In this document: positions 1 to 19,101 of the stretch, piece by piece
Position numbering within the stretch: the stretch's first letter is position 1
Layout: every line of letters starts with the position of its first letter
Sequence record: MN850621.1
Source of the DNA: Escherichia phage dhabil
Length of the DNA: 64,000 bases
Strand: one strand, 5' to 3'
Notes under the pieces: generated by a model
The model's input: the letters and a program-made list of their open reading frames with translations, nothing else
Database searches by the model: none
What the model was told of the DNA's origin: nothing
Program-made: the position numbers and the translations under genes

Positions 1-87
1 GGTATATTGGTCTGAGTCTAAACGTTCAATGGCGCGTTCAGCGAAGGCGTGCATTAAGGTTAGATAAATGGGGGTTAAAAATTTCAT
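1..87 (-). CDS. hypothetical protein, N-terminal fragment (gene continues beyond window start)
   Basis: ATG at 87 on minus strand, open frame to window edge (MKFLTPIYLTLMHAFAERAIERLDSDQYT...); not in ORF track because truncated. Confidence 0.3.
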   Translation of the reverse strand, partial: MKFLTPIYLTLMHAFAERAIERLDSDQYT

Positions 88-225
88 AGTTGTCTCTTAG
101 TTGTGGGCCGTTCCTTGGCACATTAATTCGTCCCTTTCTGCATTTACCCATTACCGCACTTGGGCTCGACCTTATTACAGGTTGGCGGGAGTCCCTCACA
201 GAATTGTGAGGTCCAGGTTGCTCCC

Positions 226-642
226 TTATGCGTAAATCGCCTTACCATAATGTTTGTACCAGGTAGGACGTTGTGCAATTTTTTCATCCAAACGGGCTTG
301 TGAAATAGCGATAGAAGCTTCGTGAGGAACATAATCACCACGGAATTCCTGAGGAATATCACTAATGTCCTGGACTGTAGTATCCTTGATATTAAAGCCA
401 CGTTTTAAACATTCAGCTATAAGCTCAATTTGACGCTTACGTAAAAATTCAAGCTTATCATAAAAGAATGTAACATGGCCTGTACCAAGGATAAAAGTAG
501 GGCTGATTTTAAAATCACGAACACGTTTACCGTTAGCAACATGCTTACGAACTGCACCGAAAACACGTGGTAATTCACGGTATTCAGCCATAAGGTGTTG
601 GTCGGCCAATTCAGATACTAAGGTAAGGTTGATACGAGTCAT
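226..642 (-). CDS. denV: endonuclease V, pyrimidine-dimer DNA glycosylase/AP lyase
   Basis: 138 aa, near-identical to T4 DenV as remembered ([26 protein letters not shown]...); SD AGGAG upstream. Confidence 0.95.
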
Positions 643-668
643 TTTAATCTCCTGTAGTTGATAGGTCT

Positions 669-697
669 ATAGTATCATGCCTACCGGAGATGTAAAC
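669..697 (-). promoter_or_regulatory. T4-type early promoter for denV (-35 GTTTAC, 17 nt spacer, -10 TACTAT)
   Basis: Minus-strand GTTTAC (692-697) and TACTAT (669-674); same cassette recurs upstream of other early ORFs. Confidence 0.5.
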
Positions 698-702
698 TGC
701 TT

Positions 703-1191
703 TTATCTATAAGCGGCCCAAGTACCTGTTTTAAAGGTGGCGATAACACGCTTGGCACGATTCGGGGTTTGCTTGTACCAACGAGACTGCGCCAGGTTAA
801 CTGCGGCGTCATCCCAACGTTTTTGTTGGAGCATACGCAGAGAGTTGGTAAATCCCGCTACACCAGCTTCACCCATTTGGAAGACCATATTAATCAATGC
901 ACAACGACGAACTTCGTCCAGCACATCATAAACCGGTTTCAATTTAGGATTGCGCATTATAGCTCTACGAGCATTTTCCACTGAACGATTAAAGAGTTGT
1001 TCAGCTTCAGCCATAGTAATACGACCATTACAAACTCGACCCATAAGCTTATCAAGTTCAGCGCGAGCAACATCTTTAGATGGGTTCTTGGTAACTAACT
1101 GGCCTATACCAATAGTCCAATAACCTTCGGTGTCTTTATAAAGATTTAAATCAAGACCTTCGTCTTGACGTAACATATCAAAAATATCCAT
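703..1191 (-). CDS. e: lysozyme (endolysin), T4 gene e homolog
   Basis: 162 aa, aligns along full length with T4 lysozyme (…[17 protein letters not shown]…[59 protein letters not shown]). Confidence 0.95.
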
Positions 1192-1195
1192 AATA

Positions 1196-1221
1196 CCTCC
1201 TGAGTATAGGAGGTATTTATA
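1196..1221 (-). promoter_or_regulatory. late promoter TATAAATA abutting an SD-sequestering hairpin for gene e
   Basis: Minus strand reads TATAAATA-cctcct-atactc-AGGAGG-tatta-ATG; the inverted repeat cctcct/aggagg contains the SD. Confidence 0.5.
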
Positions 1222-1671
1222 TCAAAAGAGCGAATCTAAAACCTTAAACATCGACGGGCCCATGACATATTCCCATTGCGGACGTTTAATCAAGGCGAAG
1301 GCATCAAATTCAGGAATCGTACGACCATCAGGGAACGTGTGGTAAGCTGTACATTTGCAATTCTTGAACTGCTCGTGTTCGACAGGCACAGTATATAAGA
1401 ACAGGTGTAGATTCTTATTGCTAGAATATTTGAACTCACCTAGGTCTTTCAGGAACGCAGGATCGTATGCAGTGAATCCAATCTCTTCTTCAGTTTCACG
1501 CATTGCTGCTTGAATAGGCTCTTCACCCGGTTCGACATGACCTTTAGGGATGTCCCATTTATGACGCATATTCTCTGGATTACGAGAACCTGTTACACGA
1601 CCCATAACCAATTCTTTATCGGCGGTCATAAACAAAATACCGGCGGATAGTTCTTTAACTTTTTTACTCAT
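1222..1671 (-). CDS. nudE: Nudix hydrolase (T4 e.1/NudE-like)
   Basis: 149 aa with Nudix box GHVEPGEEPIQAAMRETEEEIGF; position immediately downstream of e as in T4. Confidence 0.85.
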   Translation of the reverse strand: MSKKVKELSAGILFMTADKELVMGRVTGSRNPENMRHKWDIPKGHVEPGEEPIQAAMRETEEEIGFTAYDPAFLKDLGEFKYSSNKNLHLFLYTVPVEHEQFKNCKCTAYHTFPDGRTIPEFDAFALIKRPQWEYVMGPSMFKVLDSLF

Positions 1672-1900
1672 CGTCTCGTTTCCATGATTGGTTAAAAATG
1701 TCGCTCATTAAAATTTCAAGTCTATTTTCTAATGACGGACTTTCACTATCAGATATTTGGACCATATAATCAGAAATAGGTCGGAACATATCCAAGTCGC
1801 TTTCTAAATCTTCTTTGATTTTCTCTTCTGATGTTCCAGTGTCATAGGAATACAGATAAGAATCGCATGACTCAGATTTAATATAAATCGCAATACTCAT
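1664..1900 (-). CDS. hypothetical small acidic protein
   Basis: 78 aa ORF, start overlaps upstream stop (ATGA coupling), SD GAGGAA. Confidence 0.5.
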   Translation of the reverse strand: MSIAIYIKSESCDSYLYSYDTGTSEEKIKEDLESDLDMFRPISDYMVQISDSESPSLENRLEILMSDIFNQSWKRDDE

Positions 1901-2484
1901 TTACGGCATTCCTCAATAAAAGAGTTTAATGTATTTTTCTTAGTGATATCGTCATATACCTTTTTAACTTTAGAAATACGAAAAGGTACTTCAATAACTG
2001 CAGTCCATAAAAATGATGCGATAAGTCCTAAGATAGCCGCAGACATCGCTGAAGCAAATAGCGTAATAGGCAGGTCATTATCCGTTGTCAGGAAAAACCC
2101 TAGGAGTGGGAAAAATAATATCCCCATCCAAACATAGAACCTAGAACTCACCAATTTGTCGTATTCATCACTCCATGTACGGAAGCCGTATTTTTTGCTA
2201 TAACAAATCAATGGGTCCGGCGTCTGTTCTTTATGGGGTTCCGGTTGCCAACCATTTACGATATAGCCCATTTTATATTCCTCAATTAAAAGTTGTTTCA
2301 TTTCAGCAGTACATCCTGACCAATCTACTGTACTGGCTGAAATTCCTTCATCAGCATCATCAATATTTCGCCAGGACTTTTTAATAATCATATTCTCACC
2401 ATTTGGGATAATGATTCCGGCATTTTCAGACCGACGGATGAAGTTTACATCAACACCCATGCAACCAGGTTCATAAAGGGCCAT
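1897..2484 (-). CDS. hypothetical membrane protein with C-terminal FIxECR motif
   Basis: 195 aa; hydrophobic segment VWMGILFFPLLGFFL…AILGLIASFLWTAVI; C-terminus …NTLNSFIEECRK. Confidence 0.55.
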   Translation of the reverse strand: MALYEPGCMGVDVNFIRRSENAGIIIPNGENMIIKKSWRNIDDADEGISASTVDWSGCTAEMKQLLIEEYKMGYIVNGWQPEPHKEQTPDPLICYSKKYGFRTWSDEYDKLVSSRFYVWMGILFFPLLGFFLTTDNDLPITLFASAMSAAILGLIASFLWTAVIEVPFRISKVKKVYDDITKKNTLNSFIEECRK

Positions 2485-3170
2485 TACCAGCCCTCCATAG
2501 GGAATTCCAGATATACTTGAGCATTAACGCGGATTTCATTTGTAATCTTTTTAACACGGTCGGTATTACGAGACACACGACCAAACCAGCGCCATCCGTT
2601 ACTTACTGCACGGGAACCTGTATGCCATGTCTGCCAATCAAACTGGAGCAATGTACGGTCAGGAGCATCCCACTTGGTTAATTCATTAGACTCAATTTTT
2701 TCCAGAACTTCTTTATGCCACTGGCGATAGATAAGTTCGCCATCAGGAATCTGGCTAAATTGTGCAGTTCCGGTTGCAAAATAAGTAGGACACACATCAG
2801 CGTTAACAAGACCAAGAATATGTTCAGAATGGTATCGAGGGTTATCATAATCAGGTTGCCCTGCAGTAATAAAGTGTTGACCAACCGGAATATCCGGGCG
2901 TGGTACATCATCATGGTGATAACCTGGGATAGCAGGATACCAACCAGGCATCAGCATATGAACCCGAGAATCAAATACAACCTGGTCGGTGTTCCAATCA
3001 TCCGGCAGACTCATTATAAAGCTACGAGTAATAGGGCCACCATTATCAAAAGCGAAAGCCAATGAGCTGTTGAAGAACATAGTTTCGTTTTTGATTTTAT
3101 CGTTAGAAATTTTACCAGCGAAACCGCCTACTGCACGAGCTTGAGAATTAAAAGTTTTTGGGCTGTTCAT
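2484..3170 (-). CDS. hypothetical protein
   Basis: 228 aa ORF with SD TGAGGAAAATATT-ATG; no family recognised from sequence. Confidence 0.6.
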   Translation of the reverse strand: MNSPKTFNSQARAVGGFAGKISNDKIKNETMFFNSSLAFAFDNGGPITRSFIMSLPDDWNTDQVVFDSRVHMLMPGWYPAIPGYHHDDVPRPDIPVGQHFITAGQPDYDNPRYHSEHILGLVNADVCPTYFATGTAQFSQIPDGELIYRQWHKEVLEKIESNELTKWDAPDRTLLQFDWQTWHTGSRAVSNGWRWFGRVSRNTDRVKKITNEIRVNAQVYLEFPMEGW

Positions 3171-3180
3171 AATATTTTCC

Positions 3181-3411
3181 TCAGAAGCAAGTATTAACTT
3201 TACCAGTTGTGCTTACACATGTGTTACCGAGCTGAACACCTAAAGTACCATTAGGATTCATATGGAGATTATTACCGATCTTAACCGATGTACCATCTTT
3301 ACTGACAACGATTGAGGATTCAACTTGTGTTTCGTCTCCAACATCAACAATAAAAGGAACTGCAGCTAAAGCAACCAAGCTCAGGGCTAAAACACTCATG
3401 ATGGCTTTCAT
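3181..3411 (-). CDS. small secreted/periplasmic protein (signal peptide)
   Basis: Start taken at internal ATG after GGAG SD (MKAIMSVLALSLVALAAVPFIV…); conserved leader cassette upstream. Confidence 0.5.
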   Translation of the reverse strand: MKAIMSVLALSLVALAAVPFIVDVGDETQVESSIVVSKDGTSVKIGNNLHMNPNGTLGVQLGNTCVSTTGKVNTCF

Positions 3412-3476
3412 TTTATTCTCCAATTCACTCATTTGTTTTGATAGGTCTATAATAACATATCTTACGAGAATGTATA

Positions 3477-3689
3477 TTACTTTTTGTTGAAAAAGTACAT
3501 TTTACCTTTAGGGGATAAGGATACACGAAGTGCATTACCGATACCAACCGAACATTTAACCAGGTCAGCAGATTTCAATTCACCAAATGCTTGACGAAGG
3601 TCACCGTCACGAGTGTTAACCATCAGACATTTAGCACCAGCTGCACGAACTTCGTTTAACATGTTGATTGCTTGGTTAGAAAGTTTCAT
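3477..3689 (-). CDS. hypothetical small protein
   Basis: Start at ATG 6 nt after GGAG in the conserved leader (MKLSNQAINMLNEVRAAGAK…); the track ORF extends further 5' into the leader. Confidence 0.45.
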   Translation of the reverse strand: MKLSNQAINMLNEVRAAGAKCLMVNTRDGDLRQAFGELKSADLVKCSVGIGNALRVSLSPKGKMYFFNKK

Positions 3690-3720
3690 TTTATTCTCCA
3701 TTTCACTCTGTTGTTTTGAT

Positions 3721-3755
3721 AGGTCTATAGTATCACACCTATAGACCTTGTACAC
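3721..3755 (-). promoter_or_regulatory. early promoter with perfect 10-bp stem-loop (PeSL-like cassette)
   Basis: Minus-strand -35 GTGTAC (3750-3755), -10 TACTAT (3727-3732); inverted repeat aggtctatag (3721-3730) / ctatagacct (3739-3748). Confidence 0.55.
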
Positions 3756-3767
3756 TGTTTTATGCAA

Positions 3768-4727
3768 TTATTTTTCGAAAGGACGAATTAAATGTTGATT
3801 ACGCTTAAACCGGTTGATGTAGTCACTTTCACCTAGGGTCCTATACATATTCACTACAGCTTGGTAGTTTTCCCAGGCATACTCACGGAACCAACCTGAA
3901 GTGATTGAGGTGCACACTTTCTCAAGAGCCATATAGAAACTTGTGGCCGCTGGGATATTAAAGTCATTAGGAACCTGCGAACGCTCTAGAGCAAGTACAC
4001 ATGCTTCTTCATAAACCCCTGCCAGTTTAATAGCTTCAGGCAAAGCTTCAAACTTCTCACGAGAGGTCATGACTTCAGAACCATCTTTCATATAAAAGGT
4101 ATACGCTGGGCGTCCGGCTAATGCCACAGCTTCATGAATAGAGTCGTGGTCTAATGTATAGATGGTATCATTAAAGAACGATGATTTGTTTACATCTAAT
4201 TTAGGATGAGAATAGCTCAACGTTTCTTTCTGACGTTGCAGCATGATTTCTTGGAGCTCTTCATTCAAGGTTACACCTTTATTACGAAGGTATTTGATGT
4301 GGGACATCGTCTTCAAAAAGAAAGGGTTGTTCTTCAAATAACGATGGCTCATTTTGATGGCCAGACAGATATCAGGCGTGGCCCAATAGAAACCCGTCAT
4401 CCGATCTTTCTTAATATGTGTTTTAGCATAATTCAGAAGGCGGTAGCTTGAGGTGAAATCCTCATCTTGGAGTTCGCCGGTAATTTCACGTACGTTAGTC
4501 AAGGCGCGGACGATATAAGCTTCAAAATAGGTTTCTTTACCGTTGTGCATGCATTTAAAAGCCTGGACGTCAGGGTTGTCTACGTGTACATGGGCGCCAA
4601 ACATCTGTGCTTTAAAATTATTCCATGACCCCTGGTCGGCAATAAAATCCCAATCAGAATTTTCGATATACTTACTTTCAATCAGACCAGCGTGGTGCAG
4701 TGCACGAGAACCAATAACTAGCATCAT
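3768..4727 (-). CDS. hypothetical protein (319 aa)
   Basis: Long ORF with SD GAGGAAAATATT-ATG; no confident family assignment. Confidence 0.65.
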   Translation of the reverse strand: MMLVIGSRALHHAGLIESKYIENSDWDFIADQGSWNNFKAQMFGAHVHVDNPDVQAFKCMHNGKETYFEAYIVRALTNVREITGELQDEDFTSSYRLLNYAKTHIKKDRMTGFYWATPDICLAIKMSHRYLKNNPFFLKTMSHIKYLRNKGVTLNEELQEIMLQRQKETLSYSHPKLDVNKSSFFNDTIYTLDHDSIHEAVALAGRPAYTFYMKDGSEVMTSREKFEALPEAIKLAGVYEEACVLALERSQVPNDFNIPAATSFYMALEKVCTSITSGWFREYAWENYQAVVNMYRTLGESDYINRFKRNQHLIRPFEK

Positions 4728-4740
4728 AATATTTTCCTCA

Positions 4741-4908
4741 TTAATAAAGACGAGTTACTTCATATTTACCCAGTTCAGATTTTTTTGCTTCAATACGCGT
4801 TGCGGCTAGATTAGCAGCCTCTAGTGAAGAAAATTGGACCACTTGGGAAGTATTCTGCCTTACGCCACCTTGTGGGTGAGTAACAAAAACAATAAGAACA
4901 TTATACAT
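4741..4908 (-). CDS. hypothetical small protein (55 aa)
   Basis: Below the ORF-track size cutoff; found by manual translation (MYNVLIVFVTHPQGGVRQNTSQVVQFSSLEAANLAATRIEAKKSELGKYEVTRLY), SD TGAGGAAAATATT. Confidence 0.35.
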   Translation of the reverse strand: MYNVLIVFVTHPQGGVRQNTSQVVQFSSLEAANLAATRIEAKKSELGKYEVTRLY

Positions 4909-4929
4909 AATATTTTCCTCAGAGTAAAC

Positions 4930-5169
4930 TTAAATTTCAGCAACGTAATCGTTATGCAATTCCCACATATCATCAGAATTATTCTTAATGATAGGAATTA
5001 TCTCATTAGAGATTTCTTCGGCATAAGGGTCGTTGATACAGTGAGCGTCTTCAAAACGAACACCATAATCAGACTTCTTATAGGCAAAGCCATAAATCTT
5101 TTTAAACTTGGCACGACTAATGCGTACCGGCTCATCAGACTTATCAGACAGTGGAGAGTAATACCACAT
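4930..5169 (-). CDS. hypothetical small protein
   Basis: 79 aa ORF with SD AGGAG 6 nt upstream of ATG. Confidence 0.45.
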   Translation of the reverse strand: MWYYSPLSDKSDEPVRISRAKFKKIYGFAYKKSDYGVRFEDAHCINDPYAEEISNEIIPIIKNNSDDMWELHNDYVAEI

Positions 5170-5213
5170 AATGTTCTCCTCATGTTTGTGTAAGGTAATA
5201 GTAACACAAGTTT

Positions 5214-5564
5214 TTAGAGTTGTACATCACTTCTGCAATATTCTAAAAATAATTTATCGCTGTCTACTGTATCCCAACGCCGCCAAGATGGATTCCAGAC
5301 CAGAGCGTTGTCACCACAATCATTGAGCTTAAAATGGTCGTAGTACATGGCTATGTGTCTAGTCTCGTCACCGGAGAACCCTAGTATAGGCTCGCCGTGG
5401 GTATGATACATATGATGGTGCATTGAGAGGTCGCACTTATAAAACATCTCACGTTTACCACGAACGAACAAGAAAGCTTGCCCATTCATATAGAATTCTT
5501 TATCTGTTTTCAAAAGATATTTGAATACTGAATCTTTGTGCATAAGTCCTCCTACCACATCCAT
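5214..5564 (-). CDS. hypothetical His/Cys-rich protein
   Basis: 116 aa ORF (…CDLSMHHHMYHTHGEP…); alternative start at 5543 has the stronger SD (AGGAGGA). Confidence 0.5.
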   Translation of the reverse strand: MDVVGGLMHKDSVFKYLLKTDKEFYMNGQAFLFVRGKREMFYKCDLSMHHHMYHTHGEPILGFSGDETRHIAMYYDHFKLNDCGDNALVWNPSWRRWDTVDSDKLFLEYCRSDVQL

Positions 5565-5573
5565 GTGGCTAAA

Positions 5574-5801
5574 TTATTTTCCTAACGAAATACGAGTAGG
5601 TTTTTTACCAAAGTATTCTTCATAAGAACCATCTAAACGACCTGCTTTAGACCGGCAATATGAATCATACTTTTTATAATAGGCCATCTCAGTATTATAA
5701 CGTGGGTGTCTATCAGCCATAATAATACTTAACGGCCAACCTTTGGCATAATCGCGAAGACCGTTTATTTTATGAATGTATCTTTTCTTTAATTTTAGCA
5801 T
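5574..5801 (-). CDS. hypothetical small protein
   Basis: 75 aa ORF in a tightly packed minus-strand operon. Confidence 0.4.
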   Translation of the reverse strand: MLKLKKRYIHKINGLRDYAKGWPLSIIMADRHPRYNTEMAYYKKYDSYCRSKAGRLDGSYEEYFGKKPTRISLGK

Positions 5802-6019
5802 GAGCTTGGGTACCAGATTTTACCATCGGAGCGAGCAACGAAGGTACGACCAGCTTCTTCACCATAACAAGAGCTATTCAGCCAATCTTCAAGACGAACT
5901 TCACCATCATAATCATCAAGCTCAACACCAAAATCCTGAGCAGAAGCCATATCTTTTACTTTCTTATACAGCGCAGCCAGTTCAAGAGCTGCTTTTTCTA
6001 ATTCATTAATATTAGACAT
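5795..6019 (-). CDS. small acidic protein, paralog 5 of the C-terminal W-x-x-SS-C family
   Basis: 74 aa, ends …KIWYPSSC; member of the tandem array. Confidence 0.55.
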   Translation of the reverse strand: MSNINELEKAALELAALYKKVKDMASAQDFGVELDDYDGEVRLEDWLNSSCYGEEAGRTFVARSDGKIWYPSSC

Positions 6020-6028
6020 TTTATCACC

Positions 6029-6241
6029 TTAGCAAGACATAGAGGATGTAAACCAGAAACCTTCACCATCTGGGATACCGTAATCATCACGGACCCATTC
6101 GTAATCATCATATTCCGGATTCTTTGGGGAAATGTATTGTCCACGGCCGGAAACATGGAACTCTTCACCTGTTTCGTCAGCCACGGACTGACCTTTACGT
6201 ACTAATTCACGGATTTGTTTTTCAATTTCATCAATAGTCAT
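6029..6241 (-). CDS. small acidic protein, paralog 4 of the C-terminal W-x-x-SS-x-x-C family
   Basis: 70 aa, ends …GFWFTSSMSC; preceded by ggtaataaaATG-type RBS. Confidence 0.55.
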   Translation of the reverse strand: MTIDEIEKQIRELVRKGQSVADETGEEFHVSGRGQYISPKNPEYDDYEWVRDDYGIPDGEGFWFTSSMSC

Positions 6242-6250
6242 TTTATTACC

Positions 6251-6448
6251 TTAGCATTCGTAAGAGGAGGACACCCAAGAGGTACCACTAATAGTAATAC
6301 AACCGTTATAAAGCGTTATATGTCGTTCTAAGTCACGAGCACCATCAATATAGATATCAGCTTCTTCGCGTTCTTCTTTACAAATTTGAATAACGTTTTC
6401 AATTGCCGCAGCGGCAGTTCGGATTGCACAATCTAATTCACGAGACAT
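6251..6448 (-). CDS. small acidic protein, paralog 3 of the C-terminal W-x-x-SS-x-x-C family
   Basis: 65 aa, ends …TSWVSSSYEC. Confidence 0.55.
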   Translation of the reverse strand: MSRELDCAIRTAAAAIENVIQICKEEREEADIYIDGARDLERHITLYNGCITISGTSWVSSSYEC

Positions 6449-6457
6449 AATATTTCC

Positions 6458-6739
6458 TTAACATTCAGAAGAAGAGGACACCCAACCGCCAGTTGCGAGG
6501 TCAGTTGTATAGTCATGAGTATTAACAATAGCCCATTCAGGATGACCATCTTCTTCCCAATGGGCAAGGTCAGCTTTCAAGGCGCCAGGAGAATAATAGT
6601 CACCGCCCATACCGCGAGCAGGGTATATATTAAAATGAGTCTCATATTTGTCTGCAATTTCCTCGGCACGACGAATAGCTTCATGAATTTCTTTTACTGC
6701 GGCCAGAAGCTCTGGATGGTTATGATTATCATTCATCAT
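6458..6739 (-). CDS. small acidic protein, paralog 2 of the C-terminal W-x-x-SS-x-x-C family
   Basis: 93 aa, ends …GGWVSSSSEC. Confidence 0.55.
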   Translation of the reverse strand: MMNDNHNHPELLAAVKEIHEAIRRAEEIADKYETHFNIYPARGMGGDYYSPGALKADLAHWEEDGHPEWAIVNTHDYTTDLATGGWVSSSSEC

Positions 6740-6748
6740 AGCTTTTCC

Positions 6749-7039
6749 TTAGCACATTGCCGAAGAGGAGACCCAGGCACCAACTGTAACGACGCCATTT
6801 TCAACTTCACCGCCATTGTTTTCAATTTCATCTTTAAACCACTGGGAGCATTCATAACCAACAGGGTAGTAGGTACGTCCTGAGCCATAATCACCTGTTC
6901 CGAATTGAATACCGTACTTATCGGCAATAGCTTCACATTTGGATTCGATGATATCTACTTTACCGAGCAGGGCATAGATAGCTTTTTCTGCAGATTTCTC
7001 GTCGTTGTATTCAGGGATTTCAATTTCAATTTTATTCAT
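6749..7039 (-). CDS. small acidic protein, paralog 1 of the C-terminal W-x-x-SS-x-x-C family
   Basis: 96 aa, ends …GAWVSSSAMC. Confidence 0.55.
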   Translation of the reverse strand: MNKIEIEIPEYNDEKSAEKAIYALLGKVDIIESKCEAIADKYGIQFGTGDYGSGRTYYPVGYECSQWFKDEIENNGGEVENGVVTVGAWVSSSAMC

Positions 7040-7389
7040 GATTTACATTCCTTAATAAAGGTTTCAAGGTCATTACGTTTGGTTTGTTTTACATACTCAT
7101 TATAATTAGCCATCTCTAAAGCATATCTCTTACGGATGGGAGCATTCAAAGCATTTGTATGGCAAATATCATACACGAGAGGGATAAAATAAGCCACGAC
7201 AGCCGGAGCAATTATCATATAGAAACCCATCTCAATAGGCATGACTCCTTCGATTGCAGCCATAACTGTGGTCATTACCAGACCAACCAGACCGCCGAGC
7301 ATACCTGTGACAATTCCCGTGAATAAGGAAATAGCAATATCATATTCAGCCAATTGATAAACATGCGATGAAAGACTAGGCCGTTCCAT
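7036..7389 (-). CDS. hypothetical membrane protein with C-terminal FIxECK motif
   Basis: Start at internal ATG (MERPSLS…) preceded by SD AGAGG; multiple hydrophobic helices; C-terminus …NDLETFIKECKS. Confidence 0.5.
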   Translation of the reverse strand: MERPSLSSHVYQLAEYDIAISLFTGIVTGMLGGLVGLVMTTVMAAIEGVMPIEMGFYMIIAPAVVAYFIPLVYDICHTNALNAPIRKRYALEMANYNEYVKQTKRNDLETFIKECKS

Positions 7390-7918
7390 TTTGGACCTCT
7401 TTAGCGTATTCACGGCATTCAGCAATAAAGCGATTAAGCTTCCGTTGTTGTTTACGACTTTCTAATGTGTACTCAGCAGTTAAGATACCAAGCTCGGCTT
7501 TATCATAATTTTTAATATCAGTGTAAGATGGTCGACGGTCGACCATTCCAAATACATCACCATTTTCTAAAGCCACATAGCATACTAAATGGTAATCATC
7601 GTCTGCCATATTAAGAAGCACGCAATCATTGCTCTCATTTAAAGAATATACTGAATAACGTAGTCCAGCGAATTCCACTCGTTGAATAGCCAGATTTACG
7701 TCAATAATTTCCAAAGCATCTTCAAAAGAAAGGTCTTCAGCTAAAGCAAAAATAAAAGGTAATTTGGTAGTATCGCCACGGCTAGATGTTCTGCTTAAGA
7801 AATCGTTTGAATAGCCTAGGTCTTGGCGAATTCTATAAAGAACTGAATTGGTTTCATGGGAAAGACCACTATTTTTAAACCAATCAATATTTGATATAAG
7901 GTTATCATATAAACTCAT
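7376..7918 (-). CDS. hypothetical protein with FIAECR motif near C-terminus
   Basis: 180 aa ORF, SD GGAGGAGAGGAGAATATT-ATG. Confidence 0.55.
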   Translation of the reverse strand: MSLYDNLISNIDWFKNSGLSHETNSVLYRIRQDLGYSNDFLSRTSSRGDTTKLPFIFALAEDLSFEDALEIIDVNLAIQRVEFAGLRYSVYSLNESNDCVLLNMADDDYHLVCYVALENGDVFGMVDRRPSYTDIKNYDKAELGILTAEYTLESRKQQRKLNRFIAECREYAKEVQNGTA

Positions 7919-11936: not shown

Positions 11937-12820
<884 letters not shown>

Positions 12821-12828
<8 letters not shown>

Positions 12829-13582
12829 TTTTATTTCCTAATAATTTATCAATAGTAGTGTATAGTTCAGAAAGAGTGCCGTTATTTTCAATAACAACGT
12901 CACCAGGTAAAATTGGTAGACCCGCTTCAGTGATGTGCGAGTCTTGTACTTGACCGGTTTCAGCGCGAACTACATGAATAATCGTAGCACCCATCGCTCT
13001 GAGCGAATCAATTTCGTGTGTTTGACGAACATCAGGTACGACATAGTATTTCGCATCAGAGTATATTTTATCAAAATAGTCTAAAGCGAACAACTTAACC
13101 CAATACATCTTATCAAATTGGTTAACAATAATATCAGTCCCAAGGGTCTGCATGAGACGACGTACTGACCAATTGTTATTTTTATTTATTACTTCAAATA
13201 GCTGGTCTTTTGTTTCTTCAGACAGATACTGGGCCGGGGTAAGACCATAATGATATGCGATACGAACATCAATTCCTGGAATAGGAAGGATATTATTCAG
13301 CTTAACAATAGCATGTTCAAAAATATCAACCACATCATACGGTTTTAAAGGAATTATTTCTTCACGGTCATAACCGATACCTTCAAAACAATTAAAATCT
13401 AATTTAGGCATATAGCTACGGTCGAATACAGGGTCATCAGATATGTATTCATAAGCTTCAGCCAGATACTTTTTAATAGGACCAGCGAGTTGGAATTTTA
13501 CGGAATCCATATTCTCAATTACATAGTTAGCAACGGTATCCTTACCGCTACGTTTGATTCCTACAATTGATATTAGTTTCAT
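12821..13582 (-). CDS. 1: deoxynucleoside monophosphate kinase gp1
   Basis: 253 aa, P-loop GIKRSGKDT and strong similarity to T4 gp1 (…MYWVKLFALDY…ATIIHVVR…). Confidence 0.9.
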
Positions 13583-14172
13583 TATTTTCTCATAGATGGA
13601 TGCATAGACATACGAGCCACACGTTGTTCGGCATACGAATCAATTTGTGGACGACCTGTAACTATTGTACCATCTATTTCTACAGCAAACGACTTGAAGT
13701 TGAATGTTGCCGTAGCGATTATAGCAGGGTCAGAATCTTCTTTATACGAGTATTGGATTTCCGATAAGTCGGATGGCCAACCGCCGTAGTAATGAATGCT
13801 CATTACGATTTTCTGTTTGTTGTTATCAAGGATATGGAGGGTAATCGCTTCAGGCAAGCCTTTAGGATGCCAGGCTTCGGATTCATGTGTTACATAGTTG
13901 TTTAATGATAGCATCCATTTATAAACGTCCATCCATGATTTCAGCTCACGGTCTACAAGAAAGTTTACAATCAAGGGGTCGAATTCTACTGTAGAACCTG
14001 GCAGCTTAGCACGATGTATGCCCTGGGTCGATCCGGGGACGTCTGAGATAGGAATATGGATACCCGGTAGTGTTACATCTTGTACGTTCAATTTGAATGA
14101 CTGCGTCATTCCTGAGTCACTAACCTCTAAGATAAAGTTGGTAGTGTTAGTTTGGTTAAATAAACCGTTCAT
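13582..14172 (-). CDS. 3: tail completion / sheath stabilizer protein gp3
   Basis: 196 aa ORF at the T4 gene 3 position between genes 1 and 2. Confidence 0.7.
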   Translation of the reverse strand: MNGLFNQTNTTNFILEVSDSGMTQSFKLNVQDVTLPGIHIPISDVPGSTQGIHRAKLPGSTVEFDPLIVNFLVDRELKSWMDVYKWMLSLNNYVTHESEAWHPKGLPEAITLHILDNNKQKIVMSIHYYGGWPSDLSEIQYSYKEDSDPAIIATATFNFKSFAVEIDGTIVTGRPQIDSYAEQRVARMSMHPSMRK

Positions 14173-14254
14173 AGGATTCCTATATTGCTTAAGTCCCAGA
14201 CAGTGTATAATGGTCCTAGGTCTATTCCATTCAATAACTGGCTGGGATAATAGA

Positions 14255-14905
14255 TTATTTTATAAATTCACGTAATCTTACAGGTGTCATAAAAGGCCAT
14301 TTGGCTATAGTTGGTTTTATCCAGTATCTTTCATGACATGTAGCTTTAAACGCCCGAACCATATCCTTGGCCTCTTCTATAGTATCCACACCAAATTGTT
14401 CACAAGTTTTCTTTCTGGCTTTATCCCATCTCCGTTTAGCAAGCTCTGCTTGGAGGTCTTTATTGGCAAAATGGCCATTATTCCTGTTATGTGTGGTTCC
14501 TTTAGTAGGGCTCCATCCTCGTCCCTTTACAAATCCTTTAGGGACAGGTTCGTCTGGGAATAATTTAATACACTTATCACCGTTATTATAATAAACCTTT
14601 CCGGTTTGGGTAGCTGTAATATTCTCAGAATGTTTACGTTTAAGCCACCCATAAAGCTTATTAGAACGACGAGGACCTTGAGTCATTGTCATAGCTGCAA
14701 AAGTTAGTCCAGGATGGCCCGGATGTATTTTAACTAATAGTTGATGTGCCAAATAATGTTCTTCAGGGGTTAAATCAACTAGGTTTGTAGATTCATCACC
14801 TCCACCCATACATCTAGGTAAGATATGATGAGACTCTGTATAGCAGGATAGTGCTCGTCCTTGAGCACGTTTAATTAATGAAGAATATATTTTCTGGTAA
14901 TCCAT
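14255..14905 (-). mobile_element. free-standing HNH homing endonuclease inserted between genes 3 and 2
   Basis: HNH motif …SHHILPRCMGGGDESTNLVDLTPEEHYLAHQ…; ATG at 14905 overlaps the gene 2 stop (TAATG); the track start at 14920 is TTG. Confidence 0.75.
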
Positions 14906-15741
14906 TATGCGTTCTTCCAAACTTTCTGAGCACTGTAACGCTTACCTTTAGACATAAACTGCTGAAGAGGAAGTAGGGTTACGTTAGCCCAATCAGAAGG
15001 TTTTATCTCTACTAAAGGTCCCTTGATATTTCCAGGGATATAAGCCTTAATCATCGCGTCAGCACCAGCAAATCCTTTTACCTTACTCCAATCAATTTTT
15101 AATTTGGTCGAGTTCGTAATGGTAGGCGTACTCGCGTATTGCTTCAGCAATTCTTCTAGAAATTGTTGGCGTGCTTTAGGCGGAATATAGTGTAAGTTCA
15201 ACCCATACATCAGATTATGCTTACCGAGCCCAAGATAAATGATTAAAGGATATTTGTCCCAGTAGGGTAATGTGTCCTTGTGTTTAGCATCATAGATATA
15301 AGCATAAAGCTTACCAGGAGATGGTTTAGATACCTGGTGTCCACGAATTCCTTTCTTTAATGTTTCTGTAAACCATTTAGCTGATTTATTGTTTACAGCA
15401 GCGCCTTCGTTAGCAATCTTATCACGAATACTCTTTCTAAAACTATTCACCAAAATTAATTGACGTTCGGCTTTGGTCAATTTATTGCCAGGTTTCTTCT
15501 GAAGTTTTTCGACCTGTACGGCAGTTTTAATTCGACTCGAGTATCGAGACATCGCAGATGTAAAGCTAGAATACTTAATGCCTTTATCTTCAGCGAATTT
15601 CTTAGACGAGACACCTTTGGCCTTAGCTTTGGCATATTCAACACCTAAAGCTATCCATTGTTGCTCTGAACGAGTAGGCTTAGAACCTTTTGTGGTTTCA
15701 GTGGCCTCATTGATGTAGGAAAATATACTCATCCTTTCCAT
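14905..15741 (-). CDS. 2: DNA end protector protein gp2
   Basis: 278 aa, basic; position and length as T4 gp2. Confidence 0.8.
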
Positions 15742-16178
15742 CCTAATTTTTTCAGTGAATGTTCGGTAATCAATCTAAAGTTGATACCCATTTTATCTGC
15801 GGTAGCTTTAGCGGCTTTCCACTTGTCACTATTCACAGACCAAGTATAATGTTCGTTAATATATCTCTTTTTAGCGGCAGTGGTCATTTTTACCGGAATC
15901 GCTGGAGGGTGGGTCTCTTTAAAAGGTTTGACTTCAAAAAAGAATTGTTGACCATTATCAAACTTAACCCAGAAGTCCATATAATATCGACGTTTCTTTC
16001 CTTCAGCATTACAAAAATATGGAATCACAACCTCTTCTGAATTCCATTGGACTACATTAGGATGATTATCAAGCCATCTCATTAGCCATGCTTCCCAAGA
16101 GGAACGATATTGGATTTTCTTCCAGTCACCTTTATATTTTTGTAAGTTTGTAGGTTTAAATTTCCCTGAGTAAGCCAT
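15729..16178 (-). CDS. 4: head completion protein gp4
   Basis: 149 aa ([21 protein letters not shown]…); synteny with 2 and 53. Confidence 0.85.
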
Positions 16179-16189
16179 AGTTGCCTCCT

Positions 16190-16212
16190 TATAAATATTA
16201 ATATTATTTATA
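16190..16212. promoter_or_regulatory. divergent late promoters: TATAAATA (+, 16190-16197) for gene 53 and TATAAATA (-, 16205-16212) for gene 4
   Basis: Exact T4 late -10 consensus on both strands in the 46-nt intergenic region. Confidence 0.6.
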
Positions 16213-16224
16213 CTCGGAGGCCCT

Positions 16225-16827
16225 ATGCTCTTCTCATTTTTCGATCCTATCGATTACGAATCAAAAACAGTCAAGCCGGATTCGGGCTCATTAACAAATG
16301 CCGATGTATTGAGCGTGCCGATGACTGATATATTTAGAAATTATAAAGAATATTTTGATAAAGTGGCTAAAAATTATACACTAAAGACTTATTATATCAA
16401 TGGGGCCCCTCGTCCAGAAGAATTGGCCCATCTTCTTTATGGCAATGTCCAATTATATTGGGTTCTACTTATGTGCAACAATATATATGACCCTTATTAT
16501 GGATGGATTACCGGGCAAGAAGCAGCATATCAAGCGGCAATCCAAAGATATTCTACCGACGGCGGAAACCAGGTCCTTTACCATGTAAACGAAAAAGGTG
16601 AGAAATTCTGGAATCTTGTCAACACACCGGAAAATCCGTATACTTGGTATGATAAAGGCGATACAGAAAAACGTTATCCTCAATACGAAGGTCCATTAGC
16701 CGCAGTAGATATTTACGAGGATGCCATTCGTAAAAATGAATATAAGCGCGAAATAAAGATTATTGACCCTAATGATATTGAGTCTTTTATTTCTGCCCTT
16801 ATTCGTGAAATGGAGAAAGCCCTCTAA
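16225..16827 (+). CDS. 53: baseplate wedge protein gp53
   Basis: 200 aa, high identity to T4 gp53 (MLFSFFDPIDYE…YINGAPRPEELA…QLYWVLLMCN…DPYYGWIT). Confidence 0.9.
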   Translation: MLFSFFDPIDYESKTVKPDSGSLTNADVLSVPMTDIFRNYKEYFDKVAKNYTLKTYYINGAPRPEELAHLLYGNVQLYWVLLMCNNIYDPYYGWITGQEAAYQAAIQRYSTDGGNQVLYHVNEKGEKFWNLVNTPENPYTWYDKGDTEKRYPQYEGPLAAVDIYEDAIRKNEYKREIKIIDPNDIESFISALIREMEKAL

Positions 16828-18569
16828 TGATTAACATGTCTGATAACGTAAGTTGGTTCGTCGGTGTAGTTGAAGACCGAATGGACCCACTCCAACAAGG
16901 TCGTGTACGCGTACGCGTATGGGGTATGCACCCGTATGAAAAAGTACAGGGCCCTGTAAAAGGCCTTCGTACGGAAGATTTACCATGGATGTCGGTATTA
17001 ATGCCTACATCTTCTGCCTCTGTTTCCGGTATCCAAACCGCTATGACTGGTATGGTCCCTGGTACACAAGTTTATGGCCATTTTCTTGATAAGTGGAAAT
17101 TAAACGGGCTTGTCCTTGGTACGTACGGTTCAGCATCAAAACAAAAGGCAAATCCAAACGAAGGTTTTAGTGACCCTACAGGGCAGTATCCGCTTTATTT
17201 AGGTAATGATGCCGCTGCACTAAACCGAGGTGGTGAAGTTGGATATGATGCCACTTCTAACGTAATACAAGATGCAAACACTGATGTAGGTATTAATCCT
17301 GACGGTTTGGATTTAAGCCAAGTTAAGCCTGATGATAATCCTAATTTCACAATAGAAAACATGCTTCATCGTGATGAAGGGCTTAGACTGAAGGTATATT
17401 GGGACACCGAAGGATACCCTACTATTGGTATAGGCCACCTTATTACTCCACAACCTATTAGAGATATGACCCAGATAAACAAAATATTATCTAATCAAAT
17501 AGGTCGAGAAGTTAAAGGTAATCCAGGTGCAATATCAATGGACGAGGCTTCTAAGTTATTCCAGGAAGACCTTAAAAAAGTTCAAAACGATATAGGTAGG
17601 CATAGTGTTGTAGGTCCGGTTTACAATAAAGAAAACCGTTCAAGACAAATGGCTCTTGAAAACATGGCTTTCCAAATGGGTTTAGGTGGACTTGCTAAAT
17701 TCCGTGGTATGCTCAGTGCTATGTTAATAGGCGATTATAAAAAGGCATTTGAGGAAGCTCGTAATTCAGTATGGTTTAACCAAACTAAGGGACGTGCCTC
17801 AAGGGTATCAATGATTATCCTTACCGGTAATATGGAATCATACGGTATTATGGCCCCTAAAGAAAGAGAATTTAATGGCCGTTCTTATAGGATGATTCAA
17901 ACCTTTGCAGCCCCTACAAATTCAGACCCAGCCGACCCATGGACTCCAGAAGATACAAGGATTCTTTTTAAAGAGCCGGATTCCAGTTATAAAGGCGAAT
18001 ATCCATATGTCCAAACCATGCAAACTGAAGGTGGGCATATCCAAGAATTCGATAACACACCAGGGCAAGAACGTTACCGATTAATTCACCCTACAGGTAG
18101 TTATGAAGAAGTTGCTCCTGATGGACGTAAAACTTCTAAGACCGTAGCCGACGGATATTATATGACCCAAGGCGATTCTAATACTTATGTTGGCGGTAAT
18201 AATAAAGTCAATATAGGTGGTGATGAAACCTATTATAATATGGCAAACGTTCGACGTCAAACTGACGGTTCTGAAAGCATCCATATTCGTGGTAACGAAA
18301 CCAAAACGGTAGAAGGCGACGGAACCCTTATTGTTAAAGGAAATGTTACGGTTATTGTTGAAGGCAATGCTGATATAACTGTTAAAGGTGATGCAAAAAC
18401 ATTAGTTGAAGGCAACCATGATTATACAGTAAATGGAAACGTTAAATGGTCGGTAAACGGAAACGTTGATATGACCGTTGCTGGTAATTGGTCTGAAACT
18501 ATGTCGACTATGAGTTCTATTGCATCCGGTCAATATACTATTGATGGTTCGAGGATTGACATTGGCTAA
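16827..18569 (+). CDS. 5: baseplate hub subunit and tail lysozyme gp5 (cell-puncturing device)
   Basis: 580 aa; N-terminal OB-fold region, central lysozyme domain (DEGLRLKVYWDTEGYPTIGIGHLI), C-terminal beta-helix repeats (VNGNVKWSVNGNVDMTVAGN). Confidence 0.9.
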   Translation: MINMSDNVSWFVGVVEDRMDPLQQGRVRVRVWGMHPYEKVQGPVKGLRTEDLPWMSVLMPTSSASVSGIQTAMTGMVPGTQVYGHFLDKWKLNGLVLGTYGSASKQKANPNEGFSDPTGQYPLYLGNDAAALNRGGEVGYDATSNVIQDANTDVGINPDGLDLSQVKPDDNPNFTIENMLHRDEGLRLKVYWDTEGYPTIGIGHLITPQPIRDMTQINKILSNQIGREVKGNPGAISMDEASKLFQEDLKKVQNDIGRHSVVGPVYNKENRSRQMALENMAFQMGLGGLAKFRGMLSAMLIGDYKKAFEEARNSVWFNQTKGRASRVSMIILTGNMESYGIMAPKEREFNGRSYRMIQTFAAPTNSDPADPWTPEDTRILFKEPDSSYKGEYPYVQTMQTEGGHIQEFDNTPGQERYRLIHPTGSYEEVAPDGRKTSKTVADGYYMTQGDSNTYVGGNNKVNIGGDETYYNMANVRRQTDGSESIHIRGNETKTVEGDGTLIVKGNVTVIVEGNADITVKGDAKTLVEGNHDYTVNGNVKWSVNGNVDMTVAGNWSETMSTMSSIASGQYTIDGSRIDIG

Positions 18570-18603
18570 TATTTTACCTATGAGCACTGATTTAGGAGAC
18601 TCC

Positions 18604-19101
18604 ATGGAAGGAGCCTCAATCGATGTTACGTTTACCGCTCAATTAGAAACAAACGAAACATTAGTTGAAATAAATATAACAGAATATGAGCCAACAGAAG
18701 GCATTATTGTCGATGGGGCTCGTTTATACGGAACCTATGAATCGGTATTTGGATTCTCTGAAGATGCGTTAAAATATCGATTAGGTGATGAATTTAAAAC
18801 AGCAGGTTCATGGAAAGATTTACCAGAGGACAAGAGCACTCAATTATACCTCTGGAAAGCCCCTGGTAATCTTCAGAAGACTTTTTCCTATACTGTCACA
18901 TTAATCTATGACTTTCAGGAAGAGTCATCAGGAGGTGATACAGGGAGCTCAGGAGGAAGTAATTCTAGAGCCGGTAGCGAAACCGACCCTCCTCCAGCAC
19001 CAGTAAGAAAAACCCTTACTAAGGTTTATACCAAGGTTATAGTGGGTAATTGGAGCAAATGGGCTAATCAACTCAGAGAATATGTATATGCGAGGCCATA
19101 A
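18604..19101 (+). CDS. hypothetical baseplate-region protein (5.1-like)
   Basis: Start at ATG 18604 with SD AGGAGA; the track ORF starts earlier at 18520 inside gene 5. Confidence 0.5.

Follow-up and report, generated by a model that had tools for sequence, protein, structure and literature searches.

Escherichia phage dhabil carries, between the structural genes 2 and 3 of its genome, an open reading frame (ORF) of 216 codons that is very probably a functional, free-standing homing endonuclease gene of the Mob (HNH) family which entered a dhaeg-like Dhakavirus very recently through endonuclease-initiated gene conversion. The window analysed here comprises 64,000 nucleotides (nt) of this phage (MN850621.1), all coordinates being counted from its first letter, and represents a T4-like Dhakavirus of the JS98 group. 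The mosaicism of T4-like phage genomes is shaped by free-standing homing endonucleases, which also bring about marker exclusion when infections are mixed; to our knowledge, MobE and MobA are the only members of the Mob (HNH) class that have been studied. The locus provides a natural triple made of a recipient-type genome (dhaeg/CLB_P2), a donor-type lineage (metagenome contigs) and a recombinant (dhabil).

Recent gain of the gene and its conversion tract

Region 13400-15900 matches 92 phage records, the best of which are Escherichia phages dhaeg and CLB_P2 (flank identity 98.8-98.9%), and the window is ~99.9% identical to dhaeg over 50 kb. Both of these closest relatives are devoid of the ORF. 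Compared with dhaeg, dhabil contains a 650-nt insert and an adjoining block of substitutions: on the right of the insert, 14905-16890 (1,986 nt) differ at 15 positions, all of them within 14920-14983, and no substitution occurs in 14984-16890. These 15 changes fall in the last 26 codons of gene 2, where they convert V-M-M to T-L-L in gp2 and recode a serine codon from TCA to AGT. Over the 50 kb, the two phages show 50 differences, distributed between two clusters (the gene 2 patch and another in fibritin) and ~20 scattered single-nucleotide polymorphisms.

The exact protein was found on two metagenome contigs, L076 (ENA ERZ27280537) and L077 (Logan ERR2241754), whose backbones are 92-94% identical to dhabil. 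Their ORFs differ from that of dhabil at three positions, all synonymous, and 14905-14982 are identical; the block and the ORF are, in other words, nearly identical to those of a lineage that has diverged differently. When the three sequences are compared over 12000-18800, dhaeg and L076 differ at 512 sites. At 493 of these dhabil has the dhaeg base, and at 14 consecutive sites immediately adjoining the ORF (14920-14980) it has the L076 base; the five further L076-type sites are isolated and represent private changes of dhaeg, since CLB_P2 agrees with dhabil there. At 14983, dhabil differs from both. With the first recipient-type marker on the gene 3 side at 14243, the imported tract measures 726-754 nt; besides the ORF it takes in 76-93 nt of gene 2 and, towards gene 3, no more than 11 nt. 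Judged from these alignments, gene conversion brought the ORF into dhabil together with the end of gene 2, the footprint that homing leaves, and a very recent acquisition by a dhaeg-like genome is supported by the same comparison. The likely recent mobile insertion proposed by an earlier reading of the sequence alone (hereafter the sequence-only reading) is thereby borne out.

A sharply bounded patch is in itself symmetrical for gain or loss, and the patch allele of dhaeg is the commonest insert-less allele, as could be expected if the ancestor had the gene and dhaeg and CLB_P2 lost it precisely via recombination with an insert-less phage. We regard such a reverse polarity as highly improbable. 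An ancestral ORF and patch should match the divergence of the backbone from L076 (~7-8%), whereas only 3 differences are observed in ~730 nt. Moreover, dhabil is identical to dhaeg across the gene 2-gene 53 segment and CLB_P2 has 17 differences there, yet dhaeg and CLB_P2 share the insert-less allele. Because the ORF and patch are far less diverged from L076 than the backbone is, the ORF was gained by dhabil rather than lost in dhaeg.

Two other differences from dhaeg were recorded in the window. The cluster in fibritin (wac, 32272-32435) comprises 13 substitutions and ~93 extra nt in dhabil, the latter apparent from a break between high-scoring segment pairs at 32316/32342, where 68 nt of dhaeg align twice; a coiled-coil repeat unit seems to have been gained or lost. 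At ~7382-7403, a 22-nt repeat lies where dhaeg has ~345 nt more (L078 6262-6584; hypothetical genes dhaeg_125/126), and identity to dhaeg is 98.4% over 1-7403 vs 99.9% over 14904-64000.

Sporadic distribution and purifying selection

The insert is present in 10 of the 92 matching records (QL01 in two records, C6, ABTNLS3, SHP1, 04086, E33, LQ5 and two more), and the remaining ones align in two pieces around a 650-nt gap. The comparison with insert-less relatives that had been proposed was thus feasible, dhaeg and CLB_P2 being the closest of them, and the ORF is not universally present at this position in the lineage. JS98 and JS10 were reported to contain zero homing endonuclease genes (Table 5, PMC2993671). 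The Dhakavirus orthologues, annotated as "homing endonuclease" in QL01 and ABTNLS3, share 94-97% amino acid identity with the dhabil protein, and the dhabil allele shows ~7-8% nucleotide divergence from the sampled Dhakavirus copies (synonymous divergence, dS, ~0.33). Beyond this genus, orthologues were found in Kanagawavirus (Kosakonia 305, 78% amino acid identity), Gaprivervirus (P479, 63%), Tequatrovirus (KFS-EC3, 60%; also RB32, RB33 and HY03) and the Serratia Muldoonvirus SP1 (51%), and, at the identical position, in two IMG/VR genomes. A second scan of IMG/VR, aimed at a population sample of Tequatrovirus, gave three close loci only. The RB32 copy has been labelled "putative site-specific intron-like DNA endonuclease" since 2006, an annotation shared by RB33 and HY03. 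In at least five genera the orthologues share the exact nucleotide position, with their start codon on the gene 2 stop. Our literature searches retrieved no paper on this endonuclease lineage between genes 2 and 3 and none studying its orthologues experimentally.

All 12 orthologues examined, from at least five genera and down to 51% identity, have an intact ORF of 216-220 codons with an unchanged architecture, and no decayed copies were seen. The ratio of nonsynonymous to synonymous substitution rates (dN/dS) between the dhabil copy and either the other Dhakavirus copies or the Kosakonia copy is 0.05-0.08 (dS ~0.33), in the nuclease half and in the C-terminal half alike. As far as substitution patterns can tell, such a low dN/dS indicates a working protein rather than a decaying relic. 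I-TevIII is an example of an endonuclease reduced to such a relic.

The intactness of these orthologues under purifying selection in so many genera, together with their position in a late structural operon, could also point to an endonuclease that is real but no longer primarily selfish and that benefits the phage, e.g., by excluding the markers of competing Dhakaviruses, homing endonucleases being known to cause marker exclusion (PMC2988022), or by late DNA processing alongside gp2. We deem this quite unlikely, as most close relatives are devoid of the gene, including dhaeg, otherwise 99.9% identical, and the sporadic distribution is typical of a selfish element. A beneficial role would in any case add to the homing mechanism without replacing it.

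A second Mob-like HNH endonuclease gene was observed in P479, between genes 4 and 2 (L006 1033-1680), besides the copy between genes 2 and 3, and Mob-like HNH endonuclease genes also occur upstream of gene 4 in several related phages (L019, L024-L026, L046, L048 and L057). The virion gene block around genes 4, 2 and 3 is a repeated landing zone for Mob-like endonucleases.

Family, HNH core and domain organization

The sequence-only reading described an ORF of 216-221 amino acids at 14255-14920, between genes 2 and 3, and both its length and its neighbours, identified with PHROG, proved correct. The longer form would use a TTG at 14920 and the shorter one the ATG at 14905. We rejected the TTG start, which lies inside gene 2, and retained the 216-residue form as the real one because every orthologue starts at the ATG, with the residues MNYQ or MDYQ. 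The translation contains TESHHILPRCMGGGDESTNLVDLTPEEHYLAHQ, and the peptide quoted in the sequence-only reading, SHHILPRCMGGGDESTNLVDLTPEEHYLAHQ, is present.

The protein matches PHROG 655, "homing endonuclease" (E = 7.3e-55), and tblastn retrieved matches in 1054 phage records, so that a chance ORF is excluded. T4 MobB shares 47.7% identity with residues 1-99 (E = 4e-21) and RB9 MobE 40.4% with residues 1-142 (E = 8e-22, both by tblastn). A single-sequence search of the PDB gave best E values of 0.3-0.7 and a profile search was needed. The family profile, built from 121 homologues, aligns residues 24-53 with the HNH core of EcoKMcrA (E = 0.0025) and, more weakly, with the HNH of a group II intron maturase (E = 0.022) and with Cas8-HNH (E = 0.033). 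In this alignment H26/H27, N41 and H50 sit on catalytic positions of HNH cores. Among the 121 homologues N41 and H54 are invariant, and H26, H27 and H50 are conserved in at least 90%. The catalytic residues of the HNH superfamily (a histidine on strand 1, a structural asparagine, and metal-binding histidine or asparagine on the helix) are hence accounted for by H26/H27, N41 and H50/H54. AlphaFold models reach a predicted local distance difference test (pLDDT) score of 91.5 for the full length and 95.8 for residues 1-100; they predict strands at 24-27 and 42-45 and a helix at 47-60, which would form a beta-beta-alpha arrangement. The homing endonuclease identity advanced before any database search is thus confirmed and can be narrowed down: PHROG 655, MobB/MobE and EcoKMcrA support assignment to the free-standing HNH homing endonucleases of the T4 Mob family.

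The nuclease domain is followed by a middle module with strands modelled at 104-107 and 112-115 and the family consensus G-T-x-W-I-x-N-G...I-P-x-G-W-x-x-G-R; MobE-type matches reach residue 142, and a weak PADLOC "HEase" match covers residues 91-130 (E = 4e-5). Among the matches listed, the full-length ones at 50% identity or more all adjoin gene 2 while those away from gene 2 cover mainly the N-terminal part, so that the C-terminal region (residues 144-216) is common only to endonucleases adjoining gene 2. The Mob family has been described as combining an HNH domain with a distinct, presumably DNA-binding C-terminal region (PMC2988022), and on this account we presume, by analogy, that the C-terminal helical region is the target-specificity domain.

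Two other assignments were rejected. PADLOC gave no more than the "HEase" match and a match of the HNH core to DpdF, which does not make the protein an anti-phage defence protein. A search of 13400-16300 against Rfam detected no intron or other RNA family, which rules out an intron-encoded endonuclease and leaves the gene free-standing.

Insertion point and candidate target site

The junctions can be read directly. With a slash marking the junction, dhaeg reads ...GCA TAA/TCTATTATCCCAGCC and dhabil reads ...GCA TAA TGG ATT ... AAA TAA/TCTATTATCCCAGCC. The insert is located between the gene 2 stop and the intergenic TCTATTATC, and is essentially a bare ORF with TAAT on both flanks, the stop codon of which re-creates the TAA/TCTATTATC junction. 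A 3-nt AAT repeat at the junction was considered and discarded, given that the comparison with dhaeg yields 650 nt with TAAT on both sides. Genes 2 and 3 are both intact around the insert.

The intergenic region begins with T-CTATTATC (14246-14254), a conserved motif after the gene 2 stop of insert-less phages. In a survey of 55 loci, CTATTATC was found 4-22 nt past the gene 2 stop in insert-less Dhakavirus, Kanagawavirus-like phages, Gaprivervirus and Tequatrovirus, the very genera that also have carriers, and the 8-mer follows the endonuclease stop in 5 of 7 carriers examined. T4-like lineages lacking CTATTATC had no copy of the gene 2-linked endonuclease lineage in this survey. The target site probably lies within gene 2 or directly against it. 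One possibility is recognition of the gene 2 end together with the CTATTATC motif, the insertion then splitting the site; another is a cut within the final ~90 nt of gene 2, by analogy with MobE, which cuts 122-126 nt into nrdB (PMC2790892). The one-sided tract agrees with a break close to or at the point of insertion, followed by resection that extends into gene 2.

Empty sites were compared in L009-L021, L079 and the Dhakavirus records. In insert-less phages, the spacer that separates the gene 2 stop from CTATTATC varies by small indels, precisely where the insert lies in carriers, the variants being TAA/T-, TAA/TAAT-, TAA/TCTTAAT- and TAA/TCTTCTTAATCTTCTTAAT-. Relative to dhaeg, which has no extra nt, JS98 has TAA, VR5 has TCTTAA and L017 has an 18-nt TCTTCTTAA repeat. 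These indels may be escape alleles or scars of past loss. The serine codon beside the insert (14932-14934) is recoded from TCA to AGT in dhabil and L076/L077, and from TCA to AGC in KFS-EC3 (L007) as compared with insert-less Tequatroviruses (L079-L081). Gene 2 also has an extra codon in KFS-EC3, P479 and L044, where its stop is TGA. Two insert-less phages have carrier-type codons, namely vB_EcoM_005 (L013), with the QL01-type codons ATA-GGA-TTA found otherwise in carriers only, and VR5 (L010), with the carrier-linked GTT. Such codons could stem from a past loss of the gene or from recombination with carrier phages. Nucleotide diversity at the gene 2 end of insert-less phages is 0.13-0.175 vs a mean of 0.05, but windows in gene 4 are equally diverse, and we discarded the idea of a unique hot spot.

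A more specific proposal is that the target is bipartite, with one half formed by the final codons of gene 2 and its stop and the other by the intergenic TCTATTATC, and that the small indels and the serine recoding are resistance alleles. We hold this only tentatively and think it rather doubtful. If true, homing endonuclease and target would be engaged in a continuing arms race at this locus, and the natural tract would point to a cut at the insertion site, with resection on the gene 2 side only.

Gene layout and expression

The genes surrounding the endonuclease are all on the minus strand and would be transcribed in the order 4, 2, ORF, 3, 1 (Table 1). The TAATG overlap announced by the sequence-only reading is a matter of direct reading: the A of the ATG is also the last base of the gene 2 TAA stop. 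Similar start-on-stop packing (TAATG, ATGA, TTGA or TGATG) occurs in Kosakonia 305, KFS-EC3, P479 and Serratia SP1. A Shine-Dalgarno-like GGAAG lies within gene 2, 8 nt upstream of the endonuclease start, and translation probably proceeds by re-initiation at UAAUG aided by this motif, gene 2 being the presumed source of both transcription and translational coupling.

Table 1. Position and basis of the features discussed, in window coordinates
Feature	Position	Strand	Basis and remarks
Gene 1, dNMP (deoxynucleoside monophosphate) kinase	12821-13582	minus	
Gene 3, tail completion and sheath stabiliser	13582-14172	minus	PHROG 45; 100% amino acid identity to dhaeg gp3; gp3 in JS98
Gene 2-gene 3 intergenic region	14173-14254	minus	82 nt, intact, downstream of insert; aligned with insert-less relatives
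Homing endonuclease ORF	14255-14905	minus	216 amino acids; TAA stop 14255-14257, ATG 14903-14905; ORF list and PHROG 655
C-terminal helical region, residues 144-216	14258-14476	minus	Predicted helices 149-171, 176-189, 196-202, 208-215, pLDDT >90
Middle beta-hairpin module, residues 101-143	14477-14605	minus	Common to MobE-like and other phage homing endonucleases
N-terminal HNH nuclease domain, residues 1-100	14606-14905	minus	MobB/MobE homology, profile, AlphaFold model
Predicted beta-beta-alpha core, residues 24-54	14744-14836	minus	H26, H27, N41, H50, H54
TAATG overlap, gene 2 stop/endonuclease start	14903-14907	minus	Direct reading; plus strand CATTA
Gene 2, DNA end protector	14905-15741	minus	PHROG 429, E = 1.9e-80; gp2 annotation in JS98 and dhaeg
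Co-converted 3' end of gene 2	14908-14997	minus	Donor-type markers 14920-14980; first recipient-type marker 14998
Gene 4, head completion	15729-16178	minus	
Perfect T4-type late promoter TATAAATA	16205-16212	minus	Upstream of gene 4; pattern search

The only minus-strand TATAAATA from 16212 to 10139 is the one upstream of gene 4, the window containing 19 occurrences vs 8.2 expected. Judging from its position, this promoter likely drives a unit made of genes 4 and 2, the endonuclease gene and genes 3 and 1. Sigma-70-like promoters and terminator-like sites are at chance level in the region (3 terminator-like sites vs 2.0 +/- 1.3 by chance), and RNA folding gave no evidence of a terminator in the downstream intergenic region (z = -1.7), nor of a hairpin hiding the ribosome binding site at the endonuclease start (z = +0.7). 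T4 mobE has no promoter and is transcribed together with the gene preceding it, in the nrdA transcript (PMC2790892); by analogy, the dhabil ORF probably forms a promoterless cassette within a late 4-2-3-1 transcript.

Other features of the locus were noted. Two perfect TATAAATA late promoters stand back to back between gene 53 and gene 4, at 16190-16197 (plus strand) and 16205-16212 (minus strand). A terminator-like hairpin with a poor U-tract, TCCGGGCCATCCTGGA, lies within the ORF (14708-14723, minus strand); we rejected it as a mobE-like internal terminator, the resemblance being superficial and the count of such sites that of chance. The product of gene 4 matches the whole profile of Pfam PF08722, the N-terminal domain of Tn7 TnsA-like endonucleases (E = 2.2e-23), so that a protein annotated as structural matches a nuclease fold.

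Proposed mechanism and its weighing

We propose the following scenario. The endonuclease gene, presumably without a promoter of its own, would be read late within the transcript running from gene 4 through genes 2 and 3 to gene 1, and be translated at a low level through re-initiation at the UAAUG overlap with gene 2. Its N-terminal HNH domain (H26/H27, N41, H50/H54) would nick or cut DNA, the target being bound by the lineage-specific C-terminal helical region. When a carrier and an insert-less relative infect together, the enzyme would break the empty allele where gene 2 ends or close to it, the candidate cut site being the gene 2 stop and the conserved TCTATTATC after it. Repair of the break from the endonuclease-carrying genome would then copy the gene and adjacent donor sequence into the recipient. 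The carrier allele would be protected by separation of the two halves of the site by the insert, by the linked substitutions, or by both.

T4-like phages recombine at very high frequency, and fibritin holds another small mosaic patch with respect to dhaeg (32272-32435). The ~740-nt patch could then be a passive passenger that entered by ordinary homologous recombination, no break having been made by the encoded protein, whose nuclease activity we infer. This explanation appears unlikely to us. The donor-type tract coincides with the endonuclease gene and starts exactly at its edge, and the crossover on the gene 3 side would need to fall within at most 11 nt of shared sequence. A passive patch also fits poorly with the identical nucleotide position of the gene in at least five genera and with a dN/dS of 0.05-0.08, which needs a selected activity, and a member of the same family, MobE, drives exactly such conversion (PMC2790892).

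Several points beyond the inferred nuclease activity nevertheless weigh against recent, endonuclease-initiated homing. The HNH motif that had been called clear from the sequence alone is upheld by profile alignment, homology and conserved residues, but not by curated models: no Pfam family matches the protein even at E = 10, and NCBIfam gives IscB alone, at E = 0.05 and far below cut-off, with no HNH model matching. The Mob lineage is too divergent for the curated Pfam and NCBIfam HNH models, and the missing match weakens that route rather than the residue-level evidence. The conversion footprint represents a single event, whose asymmetry may result from chance or mismatch repair. L076 and L077 are donor-like rather than the actual donor, as their ORFs carry three synonymous differences. 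As for the target, the association between CTATTATC and carriers is confounded by phylogeny, and no gene 2 substitution separates all carriers from all non-carriers; GTT vs GTA at 14920 nearly does so, but VR5 and some other genera break the rule.

Taking recent homing of a Mob-family gene into a dhaeg-like phage as the preferred explanation, the conversion tract is resolved to ~20 nt and the candidate cut site would be confined to ~100 bp surrounding the gene 2 end. Movement of the element also alters the DNA end protector gp2 at three residues. Among Dhakaviruses considered as phage-therapy candidates, near-identical isolates may differ by active selfish nucleases.

Comparison with known systems

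Several features of the Mob family are found at the dhabil locus: the HNH domain is homologous and is joined to a distinct C-terminal region, the gene is free-standing and sporadic in its distribution, and flanking sequence was co-converted. T4 MobE and MobA (PMC2790892) are likewise free-standing and have a homologous N-terminal HNH domain and middle module. Like the dhabil gene, mobE is packed against its upstream gene, is sporadic among close relatives and is inherited with co-conversion of the flanks; the promoterless arrangement, which is probable for the dhabil gene, holds for mobA, C, D and E and not for all Mob members. The two differ in their C-terminal ~75 residues, which are unrelated, and in location, MobE lying between nrdA and nrdB and the dhabil endonuclease in a late structural operon between genes 2 and 3. 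They also differ in that folding at the dhabil start does not support an RNA hairpin that masks the ribosome binding site, and in that nicking and target are predicted for the dhabil enzyme. MobB is the best T4 match (47.7% over residues 1-99), but the nuclease domain alone is shared; MobB lies between alpha-gt and alpha-gt.2, its target being listed as unknown (Table 1, PMC2988022).

The proposed mechanism resembles the intronless homing of T4 SegF and SegG, in which a break in the insert-less genome is repaired by copying the gene and its flanking markers, yielding localised marker exclusion (PMC2988022). SegF and SegG belong, however, to the GIY-YIG catalytic family, make double-strand breaks and reside at other loci. 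I-HmuI and I-HmuII of Bacillus phages also join an HNH core to a modular DNA-binding region and nick one strand, as described for MobA and MobE (PMC2988022). Unlike the dhabil gene, whose locus contains no intron, they are intron-encoded, and neither shows a significant sequence or fold match to the dhabil protein. Finally, same-site orthologues are already annotated between genes 2 and 3 of many genomes and the dhabil gene is no new kind of system. It differs from them in that its allele sits in a dhaeg-type backbone otherwise without the gene, and what is new here is an unusually clean donor, recipient and recombinant example of an ordinary type of element.

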